Shown: one piece after another, positions 6,774 through 50,131 of the stretch
How positions within the stretch are numbered: position 1 is the first letter of the stretch
Layout of the letters: every line of letters starts with the position of its first letter
Sequence record: PP400784
Source of the DNA: Escherichia phage FL38
Length of the DNA stretch: 64,000 nt
Direction: 5' to 3' (one strand)
Program-made: the position numbers and the translations under genes
Notes under the pieces: generated by a model
What the model was told of the DNA's origin: nothing
The model's database searches: none
The model's input: the letters and a program-made list of their open reading frames with translations, nothing else

Positions 6774-6781
6774 TATAAATA
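6774..6781 (+). promoter_or_regulatory. T4-type late promoter motif TATAAATA upstream of gene 36
   Basis: Exact TATAAATA ~35 nt upstream of gp36 ATG. Confidence 0.5.
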
Positions 6782-8376: not shown

Positions 8377-11166
8377 ATGGCAGATTTAAGCAGAATCCAA
8401 TTTAAACGCACTAGCACTAAAGGTCGTAAACCTGATGCTAGTACGATGAATCCGGGGGAATTGGCAATCAACCTTGCGGATCAATATCTTCTTACTAAAA
8501 ATGATTCCGGTGCTATTATCAATTTAAGTTGTCCTCCTGTTTATGACCGCGATGTTACAATGGCGGGTAAGGTTAAAGGTAATAATTATATCTTAAGTAA
8601 AACCGCTAACTATCTGGAAGATCAGACCGCACGAGATCTTAATTACTTTGGTGCTTTCCGAACTAATGGACAAGATGGTCTTTTAGATCTAACTCTTAAT
8701 GTTCCTCATTCTGCTGGCATTAATCATGGTCGAGGATTTACTTTCCGTTATGCGACTGGCGGATCTCGTGTTGAAACCTATGGGTATAATGCACAGGGAC
8801 AAAAAGCATTTAGCTATAAAATGTATCACGAAGGTGATAAACCAACTCCAGGAGAATTGAACGTCTATAGCAAACAAGAAATTGACCGGATGTTTGTTAA
8901 GAACGTTAAAATGGTTGTTCCTTCTGGTGGTACAAACCGTGGTTATTTTAAAATTGCATCCGCAATGATCCCGCAGAGTGGTCGGATGGCGTTTCTGCGA
9001 ATCTATGGTGGTAATGGATATAATGTAAACTCATATGACCAAGTTGATTTTCTTGAAATTGTTATTCGTAGTGGTAATAATAACCCTAAAGGCGTTAGTA
9101 TTGCTGCATATCGTCGAAATTCTTTGAACGTCCATGAAGTATTTGCAATTAATACTTCCGGTGATAGCTATGACATTTATGTTAACTATGGTCGTTACAC
9201 TGATAACGTTATTGTAGAGTTTGGAAAAACTGTTGACGTCGCATTGACTGTTCATGATGTTCCTGAATTTTCGGCGACTAAACCAGAAACCGGAACTAAA
9301 TTTGATGCTCGTGTTATTACGATGTTCAACACCGAAAACAAAGCCGGAACATTGATGTTTGATAATAACAATCAGTTAACCTATGATATTGTTAGCCTTA
9401 GCAATGGTCCTGATGATGTTAGAAATTATCTGCGTAAATTCCGAAGTAAAGCGGGTGAAATGATTTGGCATGAAACCGTTCAGGGTGCTGTATATCGTCT
9501 TGCTACTGGAACTACTGATTCTACGGAAGTTCTTAGAGTTGATTCTAACAGTGCTCTCCCGGGTAGCTATAAAGGATATGTAATTACTGGTAAAATGGAA
9601 TTGCACGGTAGCGGTAGTGCGATGAATTTACACCGCCAGACTGGTCAAGCTGCATATATGGCGTGGTGGGATCGTCGTGATGGTAAAAACCAACGTAGTG
9701 GTTATATCGGCCATGCGGATGGTACTACTGATGGTTTTGTGTGGCGTAATGATGTTGGTGCGAACTCATTTGATTTGGAAAGTAGTGGACAAGTAAATTT
9801 GACTACAGGAAAAACAAAAATTGTATATACCAACGGACAATATTATTCCGCTAACTCTGATGCATTCCGTATGATTTACGGCAATTATGGCGCATTCTGG
9901 CGTAATGACGGCACTAAAGTTTATCTTCTTTCTACTGCCGAAAATGATCGTTTTGGTGGATGGAACGGCAACCGACCATTCATTTACGATTTGACTTCCG
10001 GTAACGTTCAATTAGGCGGTGACGGTAACGAAGCTGCATTAACGTTAGAACGTGCAAGCAAAGCCGCTCGTTTTACGGGTGATGTTTATGTAGAAAAAGG
10101 TTTCCTTCATTTCTCTAGTGGACGATTAGGATCTCGTGATTTCTTTAAAATCAACCATTGGGGTGATAGCAATAACGGTCGTGATAACATTTTGCAGTTT
10201 GAAGACAATAGCGGTGCACACTTCACAACTGAACGTAAAATGGCAACCGGTGAAATTACTGCGCGATTTAAAGGATTTGTGCGTGTAGAATCTGGCGAAA
10301 TTACATTCCATGCTAACCGTGGTTCTTCTTCGCAATTTAGTCTCAATACATGGGGTAATGAATCACGAAAACAAGTTTTTGAATGTAAGGATGCAACAAG
10401 TTATCATTGGTATACCGAACGTACTGCGGGTGGAACTGGTCCGGTTAAGTTCTCTGTTGCAGGTTCTTTCTATAGCGGAAGCGATGCTAACGTAGGCGGT
10501 AGTCTGAATTTTGGTAATGCTATTCAACGCGGCGCTAGCGTCATTACTATAGATTCTGGTTCTGCGGGTGCTGGTTCTTTTGCATCTCAACATGATGATA
10601 ACGTCAAAGCACCTATTTTCCAACGTTTAGACCGTGGTGATGCGTCTACATATGTTCCTTTGATCAAGCAACGTTATGTTCAAGGTGCAGTAACATTCTC
10701 GTTGGGTATGCTTCTTAATGAAGGTTCATGGCGAGTTCATGTTAAAGGTTCTGGTGTTGAATCTAATACTACCTTCTATAAAAACGGCGATTTCCAAGCT
10801 GGACGCAATGGTAACTTTAACGACGTTTACATTCGCTCTGATGCTCGCCTTAAAATCAACAAGGAAGAGTATAAGGAGAATGCCACTGATAAAGTTAATC
10901 GCTTGACGGTATACACCTATGACAAGGTTAAATCTTTAACCGACCGTACTGTCATTGCTCATGAAGTTGGTATTATTGCTCAGGATCTTGAAAAAGAATT
11001 ACCGGAAGCAGTAACAACTTCTAACATCGGCGATCCCGATAAGCCAGAAGAGATCTTAACAATTTCTAACTCTGCTGTCAACGCTCTTTTAATTAAGGCG
11101 TTTCAGGAAATGAGCGAAGAATTGAATGCCGTTAAAGCTGAACTAGCGGAACTTAAAAAGAATTAA
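8377..11166 (+). CDS. 37: long tail fibre distal subunit gp37 (receptor-binding fibre) with C-terminal intramolecular chaperone domain
   Basis: 929 aa; N-terminus MADLSRIQFKRTSTKGRKPDAS..GELAINL and internal AGSFASQ..DASTYVPLIKQRYVQG match T4 gp37. Confidence 0.9.
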   Translation: MADLSRIQFKRTSTKGRKPDASTMNPGELAINLADQYLLTKNDSGAIINLSCPPVYDRDVTMAGKVKGNNYILSKTANYLEDQTARDLNYFGAFRTNGQDGLLDLTLNVPHSAGINHGRGFTFRYATGGSRVETYGYNAQGQKAFSYKMYHEGDKPTPGELNVYSKQEIDRMFVKNVKMVVPSGGTNRGYFKIASAMIPQSGRMAFLRIYGGNGYNVNSYDQVDFLEIVIRSGNNNPKGVSIAAYRRNSLNVHEVFAINTSGDSYDIYVNYGRYTDNVIVEFGKTVDVALTVHDVPEFSATKPETGTKFDARVITMFNTENKAGTLMFDNNNQLTYDIVSLSNGPDDVRNYLRKFRSKAGEMIWHETVQGAVYRLATGTTDSTEVLRVDSNSALPGSYKGYVITGKMELHGSGSAMNLHRQTGQAAYMAWWDRRDGKNQRSGYIGHADGTTDGFVWRNDVGANSFDLESSGQVNLTTGKTKIVYTNGQYYSANSDAFRMIYGNYGAFWRNDGTKVYLLSTAENDRFGGWNGNRPFIYDLTSGNVQLGGDGNEAALTLERASKAARFTGDVYVEKGFLHFSSGRLGSRDFFKINHWGDSNNGRDNILQFEDNSGAHFTTERKMATGEITARFKGFVRVESGEITFHANRGSSSQFSLNTWGNESRKQVFECKDATSYHWYTERTAGGTGPVKFSVAGSFYSGSDANVGGSLNFGNAIQRGASVITIDSGSAGAGSFASQHDDNVKAPIFQRLDRGDASTYVPLIKQRYVQGAVTFSLGMLLNEGSWRVHVKGSGVESNTTFYKNGDFQAGRNGNFNDVYIRSDARLKINKEEYKENATDKVNRLTVYTYDKVKSLTDRTVIAHEVGIIAQDLEKELPEAVTTSNIGDPDKPEEILTISNSAVNALLIKAFQEMSEELNAVKAELAELKKN
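10837..11166 (+). other. C-terminal intramolecular chaperone (peptidase S74-like) domain of gp37
   Basis: SDARLKINKEEY ... GIIAQDLEKELPEAV ... coiled-coil end; matches the SDxRLK autoproteolytic chaperone signature of phage fibres/endosialidases. Confidence 0.65.
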
Positions 11167-11206: not shown

Positions 11207-11446
11207 ATGGTCTATAATATCGTCATTGGTGCTTTGTCTAATTTCGGAATGAAATTATTGTCAAAGTTAATTAGTGAAAAGATGCTCACTAAAATTTTCT
11301 TCTATTGCGCTCGTCGTCTTGCGGATTATACCAATACGCCAATTGATGATCGTTTTGTGGAAGAACTTTATAAGGAGTTTAATAAAGATCAGTCAGAAGA
11401 TAGTAACGAGCAAGATAAACCTAGTGATAGTCAACTACCTAAATAA
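11207..11446 (+). CDS. hypothetical small protein (79 aa), N-terminal hydrophobic segment, acidic C-terminus
   Basis: SD AAGGAGAA; occupies the T4 gp38 position but is unrelated in size. Confidence 0.5.
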   Translation: MVYNIVIGALSNFGMKLLSKLISEKMLTKIFFYCARRLADYTNTPIDDRFVEELYKEFNKDQSEDSNEQDKPSDSQLPK

Positions 11447-11479: not shown

Positions 11480-12136
11480 ATGCAAGTTTCTGAAAAAGGG
11501 AAAGACTTTGCTATCTCAAATGTCCTGCGCGCTATTTTCACAACTAAAAGCACGGAGTTGCTCGTACTTCGTGTTTTTGCTGCCGTCGTGTTGTCCATAT
11601 TAGCATTTGTCGTTTATAGTAAAAACGAGTTATTTGCGCTTTATAAAGAGACTCGTTATGAGACTTATGCTCACATTCTCCAGGTAGAGAAAGACCGCAA
11701 TTTTGATAATGCAGCACAGGAGCAGTTACAGATAGTTCATGTGTCGGCTGATGCCGATTTTTCTGCTGTTTTTAGTTTTCGTCCGAAAAACCTAAACTAT
11801 TTTGTTGATTTGGTGGCATATGAAGGAAAGCTACCGCATACAATCGATGAAAAAAATTTAGGTGGATTCCCTATCAATAAAACGAGTGAAGAATATCGTA
11901 GGCATCTTTTAGGTAAATCCTATTTTACCGATAAAGATTTCCAGTATATTCCATCAAGAGAAAAGAAATTAGAGAATATCGATATAGGTTTCATGTATTC
12001 TTGTCCTATATTCAATCTCGATAATGTCTATTCTGGTAGTATCGCCATTTCATGGAAGAATAAACCGGATATTGACATTGAGAATTTAGATACTCTTTGC
12101 AATCAATCTGCCAGAATCCTCGGAAGGATTAGATAA
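11480..12136 (+). CDS. t: holin
   Basis: 218 aa; LEQLQIVHVSADADFSAVFSFRPKNLNYFVDLVAYEGKLP and C-terminal ARILGR match T4 holin T. Confidence 0.9.
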   Translation: MQVSEKGKDFAISNVLRAIFTTKSTELLVLRVFAAVVLSILAFVVYSKNELFALYKETRYETYAHILQVEKDRNFDNAAQEQLQIVHVSADADFSAVFSFRPKNLNYFVDLVAYEGKLPHTIDEKNLGGFPINKTSEEYRRHLLGKSYFTDKDFQYIPSREKKLENIDIGFMYSCPIFNLDNVYSGSIAISWKNKPDIDIENLDTLCNQSARILGRIR

Positions 12137-12142
12137 CTTAAA

Positions 12143-12173
12143 GGGGAAGCCTTTCGGCCTCCCCTTCTTTTTA
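12143..12173 (+). terminator. intrinsic terminator at convergence of late (+) and early (-) transcription
   Basis: GGGGAAGCC-TTTC-GGCCTCCCC hairpin then TTCTTTTTA; may act on both strands. Confidence 0.55.
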
Positions 12174-12419
12174 TTGGCGCATAGACGCGCCTGAATCGCA
12201 TTTTGACGCTGTATGATGAAAACAGGTAGCGTACCAGTCATCGGCTTGTTTGTCTTCGTCAGAAAACGCGTAATTGCGTTGTATGCCGTTTTCTACTTTG
12301 ACCAGTGCAATAGCTGTTTCTGGAAGATCAATCAATCGGACAAAATCGCCATCTTCCCATTCTACACGAGCAATATCATAACCCATCTCAAAATAAACAA
12401 TCACTTGCTCTAATCTCAT
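12171..12419 (-). CDS. hypothetical protein (82 aa)
   Basis: ORF with start overlapping the upstream stop. Confidence 0.45.
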   Translation of the reverse strand: MRLEQVIVYFEMGYDIARVEWEDGDFVRLIDLPETAIALVKVENGIQRNYAFSDEDKQADDWYATCFHHTASKCDSGASMRQ

Positions 12420-14351: not shown

Positions 14352-15110
14352 TTACTTGCAAACGTATTGATCTACATCAATTGCGCCACCGAATGTAGGG
14401 TGACGTTTTTCAAATCGAATAGTTCCGTCGTTTGGTTCGAAAACGGAGTATTCATATAGATCTTTCTTGCCAACATTCTTATAAAACCCGCCTTTAGTCA
14501 TAACGGTTTCTTGTACGTTTGCTTTGTGTACGTTGTATTCGTCAATGTATACAAAATCAACCATCTTCCCATTTTTAATGGTTACTTTAAGATCTCCTGG
14601 CTGGTTTCCATATTTTGCATACAGTGGAGCTTCTTTAATTTTGGTGGAAATTCCATCTTTAATACTCCACTCATAACGAACGGTGCATTGATAGGTAAAA
14701 GTTTCGACCTTCGGTTCTTCCACCATTTTTTCTTCCTGTTTCGGTTGTTCTTCTTCAACCTTCGCAGAAGTCTCTGAATCGCTTTCTGACGCGGTTTCTT
14801 CTTTAGGTAATACATTCATCAAGTTTTGGATTTGAGCGTTGTATACAGCCTCCAGTGGCTGAATCTGCCCGATATTGATCATTGTATCACGAACAGTTTT
14901 ATTCCAGTTGAGTTGCTCTTGTTTAAGAGACGGATCAATCTTAACAGCCTTAACATATACTTCATGAAGTTTCGAATCCAGTGCGGAGATTGACTCATTA
15001 GCACAAATAAACTTCTCTGATTTGGTAGTGGCTTTAGCGCAATCAAAGGACGCAGCATTAGCACCGAAAGCAGTAGCGGAAAGAACGATAGCAGCGATAA
15101 TGTTTTTCAT
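14352..15110 (-). CDS. secreted protein with LprI/DUF1311-like N-terminal domain (candidate periplasmic lysozyme inhibitor)
   Basis: Signal peptide MKNIIAAIVLSATAFGANA; then SFDCAKATTKSEKFICANESISALDSKLHEVY, typical of DUF1311; Glu-rich linker; Cys-bracketed C-terminal domain. Confidence 0.55.
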   Translation of the reverse strand: MKNIIAAIVLSATAFGANAASFDCAKATTKSEKFICANESISALDSKLHEVYVKAVKIDPSLKQEQLNWNKTVRDTMINIGQIQPLEAVYNAQIQNLMNVLPKEETASESDSETSAKVEEEQPKQEEKMVEEPKVETFTYQCTVRYEWSIKDGISTKIKEAPLYAKYGNQPGDLKVTIKNGKMVDFVYIDEYNVHKANVQETVMTKGGFYKNVGKKDLYEYSVFEPNDGTIRFEKRHPTFGGAIDVDQYVCK

Positions 15111-26068: not shown

Positions 26069-26238
26069 GACACGCGCACATTTTTATCATAGTACCCGCC
26101 ATTAATCCCGCGCGGGGCAGTTAATCCCTGTTTGCATTCTTTACCACATTCAGGGCATTCTGCCTTTTCACGTTCGGAAATTTTGCGGATTTTCTGAAAT
26201 TGACCGTGTTCTTCACAAGAATAATCATATAATGGCAT
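26065..26238 (-). CDS. FmdB-like zinc-ribbon protein (57 aa; start trimmed)
   Basis: MPLYDYSCEEHGQF ... CPECGK matches the FmdB-type CxxC zinc-ribbon pattern. Confidence 0.45.
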   Translation of the reverse strand: MPLYDYSCEEHGQFQKIRKISEREKAECPECGKECKQGLTAPRGINGGYYDKNVRVS

Positions 26239-26239
26239 A

Positions 26240-26908
26240 TTATCCCCTTTGTTTCTTAACTGAATTTGGATCTGGATTTTCTGGTAGGTCTTCCAGACCC
26301 ATAGCATAACGTTGTGCATAGATTAGCATAAGAATATCGCGAGCGCAATCATGAATTGCATCATGTGCGATAAAACCATCTAGCGTACCCATTGGTAACG
26401 GACACTCACACATCCCGCGATGCATCAATGTACGCTCAATGGCGGTGCGAACATCTCGGATATTCCAGAATCGCACAGGTTCAAGGCTGAACGTCTCTCG
26501 TGTATTGTGTGCACGTCGAATCATATCAACTAGTAATGGAATATCAAACGCATTACCGCGTGACCACATTACGGATTTAACCGGATCTACCCCTACGGAT
26601 TCACAGAATGCGTTAAAACGCGCTAAACCTTCTTTAGTTGATACTTCCGTACCATTTGTGATTAATTGCTTTCTCATGCCTTCTGAGGCGGTATTCTTCC
26701 ACCATTCAACCACACCATGATCAAACACCCTTACACCTTTCTGGGAAGGAATATCAAATTTTACCAGAAAGGAATTGTCAACCAGTTCTTTAAATGTAGG
26801 TGGATTGTGCGGATCTTCTTTAAATCCGATTGCCGCCATATTGATAACCGCCCCATCAGGCGGATAACCTAAACTTTCAAAGTCAATCATTAAATCCACT
26901 GGAAGCAT
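26240..26908 (-). CDS. dexA: exonuclease A (DnaQ-like 3'-5' exonuclease)
   Basis: Start trimmed to MLPVDLMIDFESLG (SD GGAGGA); DnaQ-like Exo motif; T4 dexA is 227 aa; position between 39 and dda. Confidence 0.7.
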   Translation of the reverse strand: MLPVDLMIDFESLGYPPDGAVINMAAIGFKEDPHNPPTFKELVDNSFLVKFDIPSQKGVRVFDHGVVEWWKNTASEGMRKQLITNGTEVSTKEGLARFNAFCESVGVDPVKSVMWSRGNAFDIPLLVDMIRRAHNTRETFSLEPVRFWNIRDVRTAIERTLMHRGMCECPLPMGTLDGFIAHDAIHDCARDILMLIYAQRYAMGLEDLPENPDPNSVKKQRG

Positions 26909-48661: not shown

Positions 48662-50131
48662 CTATTCCCCATTACCATTATACTTTCTTTGCTTAGTTAT
48701 CCACACTCTAACCATCTCTACAGATTCGCCGTCAGACGGATCAAGAGTTTTTCCTTTTTTCTTCATGCGGTACTTAAATCCGTTAAATCTTGCATTCTCT
48801 TGCTCGTTAAAGTCGAACATCTTTTTAAATGATTTTCGCCCTTTACGTTCACCACATTCTAGCGGAATCATTCGATCTGTTATTACATTGGCATTAGGCA
48901 GAAACGTTTTTAGATAATCCACCAACGCCCAATCAGGAACATATAGATTAACATTCTCCTTGCTCTCGTTGTCTCTCAGGTTACAACGCAAACATAATTG
49001 AAATGCTGGTTCCAGATAATCAGACACATGACGCGCTTTCAAAAACTCGTTTGTCGGGAGATCACAACTATTAGCAAGACCTTTTAAAATATCAATCTCC
49101 CATCGTTGAGGGTTAAAGCTGAACATCACAGCAACATTTTTATGATGAATGTAAGAGTTAAGACCATAAGACCCGTAAGGTATCCGCTCACCAATACCAT
49201 TTGTACACGCTTCACGGTCCCGATTCACGGTATAAATGAAGTCATCGCCACATTCATTTTTAACCATATCAACAAGACGTTCAAAGGTATTGTTTGTTTC
49301 TGACTGGTGACGCGACCATCGTTCAGAGTCCGTCATAAGGATGATATTAACTCTATCTGTATTTTTATACTCTTTGAAATATAGTCTGGATTCTAGCGCA
49401 CTCGGAACAAAATCGCAATTTGCATAGTATCGTAGATACTTCCCACTATATGTATCAAAGAGATTTGCACATGCTATCGTAACCTTTTTAAAGTCTCCCC
49501 ACGTACCGTGTTTGTTATCGTTCAAGAAAACAATTTTCGACCCATTCTTCCGGTGTCCTTCGTTATGTTTTACCATAACGTTGATTTTCTTCTCTAATAA
49601 CGCCTCATAAAGCCCTCTAAGAGAAGAATCGATCATATCAGTACCATCCTTCGCACTTTCTATCTTTTCTTTGATAGCGGCCTTCTCAGAGTCTTTTAGA
49701 ACTAAGTTCTGTAGGCATTCCGATTCGTCGGCGATTGGTTCGCAATGCTTCGTGATAAGTTCAAGATTAGACTTAAACGGATACTCATTAAATTCAACCA
49801 GTTGAGGAACTTCATCAATGTAAAGAGCATAATCACCAAACATTTTTGAACGTTCCATATTAGATAACGCTGTATGTGTAATGAATATCACATCAGCACC
49901 ATCTTTAACTGATTGCATTATCGACGCTTGCACTGTCTTAAGGCTTCTTAGTCTTGTGCTATCAATCAAGACAGCACGACCGCCCATTCTTTTAAACTTA
50001 TTGTAAGATTGTTCACTTAAAACACGAGATGGCGAAGCAATAACCGCTTTTTCTTTTGTCTCTAGGACGTGGGAAAGTATAGCATCAGTTTTCCCCGCCG
50101 CTGGCAATGCGATTAATGTTTCAATCTTCAT
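48662..50131 (-). CDS. P-loop NTPase of unknown function (489 aa)
   Basis: Walker A IALPAAGKTD at residues 8-17; motif Ia-like VIASPSRVLSEQ; Walker B LYIDEVP; no T4 counterpart recognised. Confidence 0.5.
   Translation of the reverse strand: MKIETLIALPAAGKTDAILSHVLETKEKAVIASPSRVLSEQSYNKFKRMGGRAVLIDSTRLRSLKTVQASIMQSVKDGADVIFITHTALSNMERSKMFGDYALYIDEVPQLVEFNEYPFKSNLELITKHCEPIADESECLQNLVLKDSEKAAIKEKIESAKDGTDMIDSSLRGLYEALLEKKINVMVKHNEGHRKNGSKIVFLNDNKHGTWGDFKKVTIACANLFDTYSGKYLRYYANCDFVPSALESRLYFKEYKNTDRVNIILMTDSERWSRHQSETNNTFERLVDMVKNECGDDFIYTVNRDREACTNGIGERIPYGSYGLNSYIHHKNVAVMFSFNPQRWEIDILKGLANSCDLPTNEFLKARHVSDYLEPAFQLCLRCNLRDNESKENVNLYVPDWALVDYLKTFLPNANVITDRMIPLECGERKGRKSFKKMFDFNEQENARFNGFKYRMKKKGKTLDPSDGESVEMVRVWITKQRKYNGNGE

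Follow-up and report, generated by a model that had tools for sequence, protein, structure and literature searches.

In phage T4, gene 38 lies between the tail fiber gene 37 and the holin gene t. In Escherichia phage FL38 (sequence record PP400784), the same map interval holds a small open reading frame (ORF), which raises the question of what a phage of this type encodes there. We analyzed a stretch of 64,000 nucleotides of this genome (the window), in which the ORF occupies positions 11207..11446 of the plus strand; it opens with ATG, runs for 79 codons and closes with TAA. A previous reading of the letters without database searches (the sequence-only reading) had described a well-initiated 79-aa ORF with a Shine-Dalgarno (SD) sequence between gp37 and the holin, and had proposed a lysis regulator or a fiber accessory factor; the coordinates, the ATG and the SD sequence AAGGAGAA were all verified. 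The product very probably belongs to the family of P18 (gp l), a lysis protein of the Pseudoalteromonas phage PM2, and we lean, with modest confidence, toward a late accessory lysis factor.

Conservation of the ORF in Krischvirus

On sequence identity, the window is assigned to an RB49-like phage of the genus Krischvirus, the 1.4 kb around the ORF matching Escherichia phage kaaroe at 99.6% identity and RB49 at 97%. The ORF corresponds to RB49p252, also named 'dc5', of RB49, and the RB49 protein is 96% identical to the window protein. The ORF was recovered by tblastn at 80-99% identity in 58 Krischvirus-type records, the same number as the records that matched the surrounding 1.4 kb at ≥90%, and it was intact in 58/58 Krischvirus records with the region. 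The sequence-only reading had named a lack of conservation in related phages as one result that would count against it, and these records show the contrary. The ratio of nonsynonymous to synonymous substitution rates (dN/dS) of the ORF was 0.08-0.25 against two diverged metagenomic relatives (L058 and L060), with synonymous sites near saturation, and that of the holin gene in the same comparison was 0.03-0.08. The SD sequence is letter-identical in RB49 and in L019, and all homologues examined have an SD-like motif, suitably spaced, in front of the start. The tblastn conservation, the dN/dS values and the SD-like motifs in all of these homologues indicate that the ORF is not a chance frame. 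It is a genuine conserved gene under purifying selection.

The start codon and the annotation of this gene vary among the records. GTG stands in place of the window's ATG in RB49 (L001, 3409) and in one IMG/VR relative (L018, 4001). In RB49 the ORF has two annotations, RB49p252 (hypothetical) and 'dc5', the latter beginning at an internal ATG (Met15), probably because the RB49 start is GTG and the internal ATG was used for the second annotation. In the GenBank records examined, the gene is labeled 'hypothetical protein' or 'Phage protein' throughout, with the additional label 'Dc5' in RB49.

Relationship to the lysis protein P18 of PM2

The ORF matched phrog_402, a PHROG of unknown function, at E 1.1e-19. 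The same PHROG was matched by PM2 gp l (E 8.2e-14), PaP3 orf10 (7.8e-18), gp094 of cyanophage S-CAM9 (2.3e-16) and gp20 of autolykivirus 1.249.A (1.7e-11). When a family profile of 41 sequences was aligned with PM2 gp l (MFSTLAKYLAVKLLTETFIKRVCLATAKHLANKSENTLDNELIDALEDALN) by hhalign, a probability of 91.4% was obtained (E 8.9e-7, 42 columns). The pairwise BLASTP comparison of the window ORF with PM2 gp l was not significant (E 0.47), and the relationship is detectable at the profile level only. In a collection of 5.8 billion proteins, all 79 of the 79 relatives were pre-assigned to Pfam PF26925, among them cluster representatives about 90% identical to the ORF; the name of this entry, 'Phage_PM2_Gpl', was taken from the gene-context annotations of the relatives. 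Local Pfam and NCBIfam scans of the ORF gave nothing significant, the PF26925 model being missing from the Pfam copy scanned.

A HMMER search of 1.84 billion cluster representatives (50% identity) yielded 360 members at E ≤1e-3. Nearly all of the 150 matches listed (of the 360) are stand-alone proteins of 53-91 aa. One further match to the family profile, P0127 (4303 aa; DUF5801, Big_9, cadherin-like; repetitive and adhesin-like; E 2.7e-12), was rejected as spurious, because its score only sums ten copies of a 'TADPTDDEF' string. Judged by these profile matches, the ORF is very probably a member of the PM2 P18 (gp l) family, PHROG 402 / PF26925. Krupovic and Bamford (2007; PMC1950889) reported P18 homologues in PaP3, Felix O1, RB49, P-SSM4, S-PM2 and P-SSM2, so the RB49 gene has been a published P18 homologue since 2007.

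The PM2 literature (PMC9502842; PMC6356626) names P17 (gp k) and P18 (gp l) as the lysis factors of this phage. P17 is described there as an unusual holin with a single transmembrane domain (TMD). Permeabilization of the cytoplasmic membrane is assigned to P17 and disruption of the outer membrane to P18, which is required for this step or helps it. PM2 has the structural proteins P1-P10, whereas P18 is counted among its lysis proteins (PMC1950889).

Gene context across lineages

The neighbors of the gene differ among its relatives. In L060, a metagenomic T4-like sequence with a 59% identical protein, gp38 (Pfam Gp38_N and GP38) is followed by the P18-like gene and then by holin T, while in L058, likewise metagenomic and T4-like (67% identical), the order is a fiber with a Gp10_C end, the P18-like gene and holin T. 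The P18-like gene stays with t across three fiber-tip types and coexists with a genuine gp38 in L060, and homologues are also found in the tailless phages PM2 and autolykivirus 1.249.A. From the orders in L058 and L060 and the homologues in tailless phages, we concluded that the P18-like gene travels with the holin, not with the fiber. Since L058 and L060 have different upstream genes, gp37 is an upstream neighbor only and is not functionally tied to the ORF.

These gene orders contradict a reading of the ORF as a substitute for gp38. A replacement of gp38, or a chaperone or adhesin accessory of the tail fiber, is suggested by position alone, namely the gp37-t interval where T4 has gene 38. 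Apart from the coexistence of both genes in L060, the arrangement in L058 and the tailless homologues, no Pfam GP38 signal was found in the ORF (E up to 1), and the gp37 of the window has its own S74 intramolecular chaperone. A fiber function is thus highly improbable.

The association with lysis genes extends beyond T4-like phages. In PM2, the holin gene k overlaps gene l. In Felix O1, Moogle and Kolesnikvirus, the last tail fiber gene is followed by the P18-like gene and then by a gene for a single-TMD coiled-coil protein of about 120 aa (phrog_4038), whose start abuts or overlaps the stop of the P18-like gene and whose product has been annotated as a putative holin by Texas A&M annotators. 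A gene for a soluble endolysin (Phage_lysozyme, Amidase_3 or phrog_315) directly precedes the P18-like gene in Vibrio phages, in a Shewanella baltica prophage and in three other contigs; there the P18-like gene occupies the usual spanin slot, with no spanin-like gene adjoining. The autolykivirus has a P5-type peptidoglycan hydrolase gene in front of the P18-like gene. Altogether, an endolysin or holin gene is the neighbor in at least seven lineages, and the identified hosts of the family phages are all diderm bacteria. A scan of viral contigs with the family returned mostly Felix O1-like loci and added little diversity.

The phrog_4038 genes of the Ounavirinae encode about 111-124 aa (Felix O1 L002, 6187..6552; Hena2 L004, 5201..5536; Moogle L005, 4186..4560). 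The topology of these putative holins, one N-terminal TMD and a long coiled coil, is that of PM2 gp k and T4 T and also that of an i-spanin. A conserved P17-P18 module was considered and rejected, as no alignment was found between PM2 gp k and Felix O1 ORF190 and the likeness is in topology only.

The exceptions come from three or four podophage lineages, namely PaP3, the SU10-like podophages (ECO319P1, L064, L065) and Aeromonas phage LAh_8, where the gene belongs to the structural module, in most cases immediately ahead of an adaptor-type gene (phrog_2941 / SU10_adaptor), and not beside lysis genes. Together with the position after the last tail-fiber gene in Krischvirus and Felix O1-like phages, they would suit a virion-assembly or structural accessory protein that is expressed with the head and tail genes and has nothing to do with lysis in tailed phages. 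This explanation is improbable in view of the classification of P18 in PM2, outside the structural proteins, and of the endolysin or holin neighbors elsewhere. In addition, the neighbors of PaP3 orf10 are flagged as virion constituents but orf10 itself is not, and the gene is present with three fiber-tip types and in phages that have no tail at all.

Predicted architecture of the protein

With the 41-sequence alignment, AlphaFold2 predicted three helices (residues 2-21, 24-42 and 45-65) and a disordered tail; the mean predicted local distance difference test (pLDDT) score was 73, rising to 83-84 over residues 31-60. The protein is modeled as all-helical with about 65 core residues. A Foldseek search of the model against the PDB gave no match with E < 4, as expected for a three-helix protein of about 65 residues. 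The window protein (79 aa; family 52-91 aa, median 65) has no signal peptide and no lipobox, and its sole cysteine is C34, within helix 2. It has a net charge of -2, compared with a family median of 0, and only 8% of the members reach +4 or more.

Conservation is concentrated in the turn between helices 2 and 3, where T42, T44, D47 and D48 are found in 95, 86, 99 and 94% of 223 aligned family members, respectively. E24, F32 and A35 are likewise conserved in these sequences. The highly acidic C-terminus noted in the sequence-only reading is real (residues 59-79). It is specific to one lineage, Krischvirus with its close relatives, and does not align in the rest of the family.

The hydrophobic or amphipathic N-terminal segment of the same reading was recovered as helix 1, with hydrophobicity that is only marginal. 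Its maximum 19-residue Kyte-Doolittle average (KD-19) in the window protein is 1.31, below the usual thresholds for a transmembrane segment, and its Hessa sum is +6.8 kcal/mol. The family averages on the Eisenberg scale are a mean hydrophobicity <H> of 0.50 and a hydrophobic moment muH of 0.31. Because of this marginal hydrophobicity and of K8 and K16, which are conserved across the family, we do not call helix 1 a transmembrane segment with confidence; an interfacial or oligomeric membrane helix is conceivable. In many other members of the family helix 1 is borderline in this respect, and the window protein matched no holin family in Pfam or PHROGs.

These properties bear on an alternative in which the protein is an inner-membrane factor at the holin level (a co-holin, activator or antiholin) that docks or inserts through helix 1 and modulates triggering of the single-TMD holin T, resembling Lcc6 of LambdaSo or, functionally, the cytoplasmic antiholin RIII of T4. 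Three unrelated families of single-TMD holins, namely PM2 gp k, T4-type T and the putative holin phrog_4038, are encoded right beside the gene, in some cases with translational coupling. The family <H> places helix 1 in the 'multimeric membrane' zone of the Eisenberg plot, and KD-19 is ≥1.6 in 45% of the members. Where an endolysin gene precedes the P18-like gene, the endolysin is soluble and there is no obvious holin nearby. Lcc6, which has the same size and layout, provides a precedent for a requirement in lysis at the holin step (bioRxiv 10.1101/2024.01.23.576932), and RB49 lacks rIII at the syntenic 30.3-31 site. Nevertheless, we regard a holin-level role as doubtful. The PM2 literature gives the cytoplasmic membrane to P17 and the outer membrane to P18, and a stable transmembrane segment is improbable in view of the conserved lysines in the middle of helix 1 and of its positive predicted free energy of insertion. 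The variety of partners, several unrelated holins and different endolysins, also argues against a specific holin-binding regulator. A comparison with T4 RIII by hhalign gave a probability of 0.03%, i.e., no sequence similarity.

At the T4 rIII position (30.3-31), RB49 (L017) carries only an unrelated 54-aa ORF, RB49p215 (26078..26242, minus strand). A search that covered roughly 100 kb of Krischvirus DNA, with some 65 kb of the genome outside it, found no RIII-like sequence. The one weak tblastn match to RIII in the window (48717-48890, E 0.027) was rejected, being antisense within a 489-aa gene.

Spanins in phages with P18-like genes

RB49 has pseT.3 and pseT.2, and PseT.2 matched an Rz-like spanin PHROG at E 1.4e-32. 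The RefSeq starts of these spanin genes (NC_005066.1, L017, 28606..29429, minus strand) are apparently misplaced. As annotated, pseT.3 (88 aa) is missing its N-terminal TMD, and an upstream ATG in the same frame would restore it (MSKLIYIVIISVLLGVGGN...), whereas the annotated pseT.2 (150 aa) starts about 40 codons before a likely lipoprotein signal (MFKKAHKNFQTAIIHVFAVPIVFALSSC) that ends in ALSSC. After correction of the starts, the two-component spanin PseT.3/PseT.2 of Krischvirus looks intact. In the survey of Kongari et al. (PMC6139136), RB49, Phi1 and JSE belong to the T4 spanin family, and Felix O1 and Moogle to the JH2 family; the genome announcement of Moogle also lists both spanins (PMC4319497).

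The same survey lists 91 phages, about 13%, as spanin-less, among them PM2, PaP3, P-SSM2, P-SSM4 and S-PM2. These five are PM2 and all four of the remaining tailed phages that Krupovic named as carriers of P18 homologues, which is a small and biased sample. In our analysis, the presence of P18 or its homologue was verified in PM2 and in PaP3, and among cyanophages the check covered the related S-CAM9 only. The distribution fits a family that may substitute for spanins in some phages and supplement them in Krischvirus and Felix O1-like phages.

Proposed role in lysis

A role of the protein in the lysis of Krischvirus is likely, because of its homology to PM2 P18 and the conserved pairing of its gene with t. 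To this extent the earlier suggestion of a lysis regulator held, with homology to PM2 P18 and the linkage to holin or endolysin genes in most lineages behind the lysis part, and it was right in broad terms only. Our full account, a late, holin-linked accessory factor that assists the final outer-membrane step and is auxiliary in Krischvirus, is the one we favor, though not strongly.

In this account, the P18-like protein would be expressed late, on a transcript shared with gp37 and the holin. It would collect in the cytoplasm or, by means of its weakly hydrophobic helix 1, at the inner face of the cytoplasmic membrane, and would be able to act only after holin T triggers and opens the membrane. 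It would then reach the envelope and help to finish lysis at the outer membrane, as reported for PM2 P18. Because an intact PseT.3/PseT.2 spanin appears to be present, the Krischvirus protein would be an auxiliary or condition-dependent helper, for example when divalent cations stiffen the outer membrane, and not its only disruptor. The functional site is probably the near-invariant T-x-T-x-x-D-D turn.

A late transcript covering gp36, gp37, the ORF and t is likely, because upstream on this strand there is a single T4-type late promoter box, which precedes gp36, and no terminator-like site was found in a pattern scan of the gp37-to-t interval for strong sites. The transcript would probably start at the box at 6774; the late-promoter pattern matched the window only twice, at 1661 and at 6774.

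Several points weigh against this account. Experimental support exists for P18 of PM2 alone, and the role in T4-like phages is drawn from homology. An outer-membrane function would be redundant in Krischvirus and Felix O1-like phages, which have spanins. The charge of the protein and of its family is not cationic, so the membrane attack of the one characterized disruptin is not transferable to it, and a near-neutral cytoplasmic helical protein of 8-9 kDa has no evident means of breaching the outer membrane. The copies in structural modules, described above for PaP3, the SU10-like phages and LAh_8, count on the same side.

A broader proposal would make the P18-like proteins a third widespread class of envelope-breaching lysis factor, apart from spanins and cationic disruptins. 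Single-TMD holins would release them, and they would act via the T-x-T-x-x-D-D turn, for instance as competitors for divalent cations bridging lipopolysaccharide, in parallel to the spanins of Krischvirus and Felix O1-like phages. We consider this proposal unlikely as it stands. If it were true, the last step of lysis in these phages would be robust to the state of the envelope.

A practical use would be the transfer of the published lysis-factor homology to the annotation of the many Krischvirus and Felix O1-like phages that have been put forward for therapy and biocontrol. The P18 family is the only candidate for non-spanin, non-cationic outer-membrane disruption in genetically tractable coliphages. 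RB49-like phages carry the P18-like gene together with spanins and beside the best-understood holin, which makes the mechanism directly testable in E. coli. It also bears on how lysis is completed in the phages listed as spanin-less, five of which are reported to have P18 or a homologue.

Features of the locus and its surroundings

The features of the locus are collected in Table 1. The holin gene begins 33 nt downstream of the ORF on the same strand.

Table 1. Coordinates of the ORF, its parts and neighboring features in the window.
Feature	Coordinates	Strand	Basis or remark
T4-type late promoter box TATAAATA	6774..6781	+	Only such box upstream on this strand; precedes gp36
gp37, distal long tail fiber	8377..11166	+	Pfam Gp34_trimer and C-terminal Peptidase_S74 intramolecular chaperone, aa 821-880
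SD of the ORF, AAGGAGAA	11193-11200	+	Read directly; GGAG core ends 8 nt upstream of the ATG
P18-like ORF	11207..11446	+	ATG, 79 codons, TAA
Helix 1, aa 2-21, marginally hydrophobic, narrow polar face (conserved K8, K16)	11210..11269	+	AlphaFold2, hydrophobicity and column conservation
Conserved core: helix 2 (24-42), T-x-T-x-x-D-D turn (42-48), amphipathic helix 3 (45-60)	11276..11386	+	AlphaFold2 and conservation
Acidic low-complexity C-terminal tail, aa 59-79	11381..11443	+	pLDDT 51-57; no secondary structure beyond residue 65
Holin t, single TMD, T4 T family	11480..12136	+	PF11031, E 4.5e-61; phrog_860 holin, E 5e-88
Hairpin and T-run, probable bidirectional terminator	~12138..12175		aaaggggaagcctttcggcctccccttcttttt
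82-aa ORF, weak Tad2-like match	12171..12419	-	Pfam, E 8e-5; 23.5 bits (cutoff 25)
252-aa ORF, LprI N-terminal domain	14352..15110	-	22.6 bits (cutoff 22)

Downstream of t, a G+C-rich hairpin with one mismatch and a following T-run lies between t and the convergent minus-strand ORFs. It is probably a bidirectional terminator that was missed by the automatic terminator scan. The first of the minus-strand ORFs, convergent with t, showed a match to Tad2 (Thoeris anti-defence 2) just below the threshold, and the syntenic gene in L060 gave the same weak match. Farther downstream, the 252-aa ORF has an N-terminal segment like a signal peptide and the N-terminal domain of LprI (lysozyme inhibitor). 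By these matches, its product is a putative secreted lysozyme-inhibitor-like protein, encoded about 2 kb from the holin gene.

Comparison with known systems

The closest known system is P18 of PM2. Both proteins share a homologous core of about 50 residues (K-L-L...S/T-E...I...F-F..A..L...T-x-T-x-x-D-D/N-x-F/L), are all-helical in prediction and lack a signal peptide, and both are encoded beside a holin gene, by a gene that is late or, in the window, probably late, in phages of diderm hosts. PM2 gp l, with 51 aa, has neither the first eight or so residues of helix 1 nor the C-terminal tail, whereas the window protein has 79 aa and an acidic tail. The gene order also differs, being holin and then l in PM2 but the l-like gene and then the holin in the window. 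PM2 has no recognised spanin, in contrast to the apparently intact spanin of Krischvirus, and the function of the PM2 protein has experimental support, whereas the window protein is known from its sequence. T4 gp38 shares the map interval with the ORF; there is no sequence relationship between them, and both genes occur together in L060.

Among the factors that act on holins, T4 RIII is similar in being a small cytoplasmic helical protein that acts on holin T. Lcc6 of the Shewanella prophage LambdaSo (bioRxiv 10.1101/2024.01.23.576932), compared here by description only, has 65 aa with an N-terminal hydrophobic helix (5-22) and about 43 cytoplasmic residues, and is likewise an extra small factor required for lysis alongside holin, endolysin and spanin. 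Unlike the proposed role of the P18-like protein, it acts at the holin or membrane-depolarization step, and it is encoded far from the lysis genes. A scan of species-representative bacterial genomes with the family motif found no Shewanella oneidensis locus and returned only two 1-kb contigs of Phocaeicola metagenome-assembled genomes.

The spanins (PseT.3/PseT.2 of T4, Rz/Rz1 of lambda) serve the last lysis step in Gram-negative hosts, and in several phages the P18-like gene takes the spanin slot after the endolysin gene. The window protein differs from them in having neither an N-terminal TMD with a periplasmic coiled coil nor a lipobox cysteine, the features by which spanins are recognized, and no secretion signal; the true spanins of Krischvirus are encoded elsewhere in the genome (pseT.3, pseT.2).

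Disruptins were defined here, after phiKT gp28, as amphipathic helical peptides of <80 aa with a net charge of at least +4, a class outside which the window protein falls at -2. The disruptin gp28 of phiKT (bioRxiv 10.1101/515445) is strongly cationic and resembles an antimicrobial peptide, unlike the near-neutral P18 family, and it has no homologues outside its own clade, whereas the P18 family is widespread (360 representatives); no homology between the two is claimed. The likeness lies in a small (56 aa), helical and amphipathic protein without a signal sequence, in outer-membrane disruption by a protein that is not a spanin, and in access to that membrane that depends on the earlier steps of lysis.

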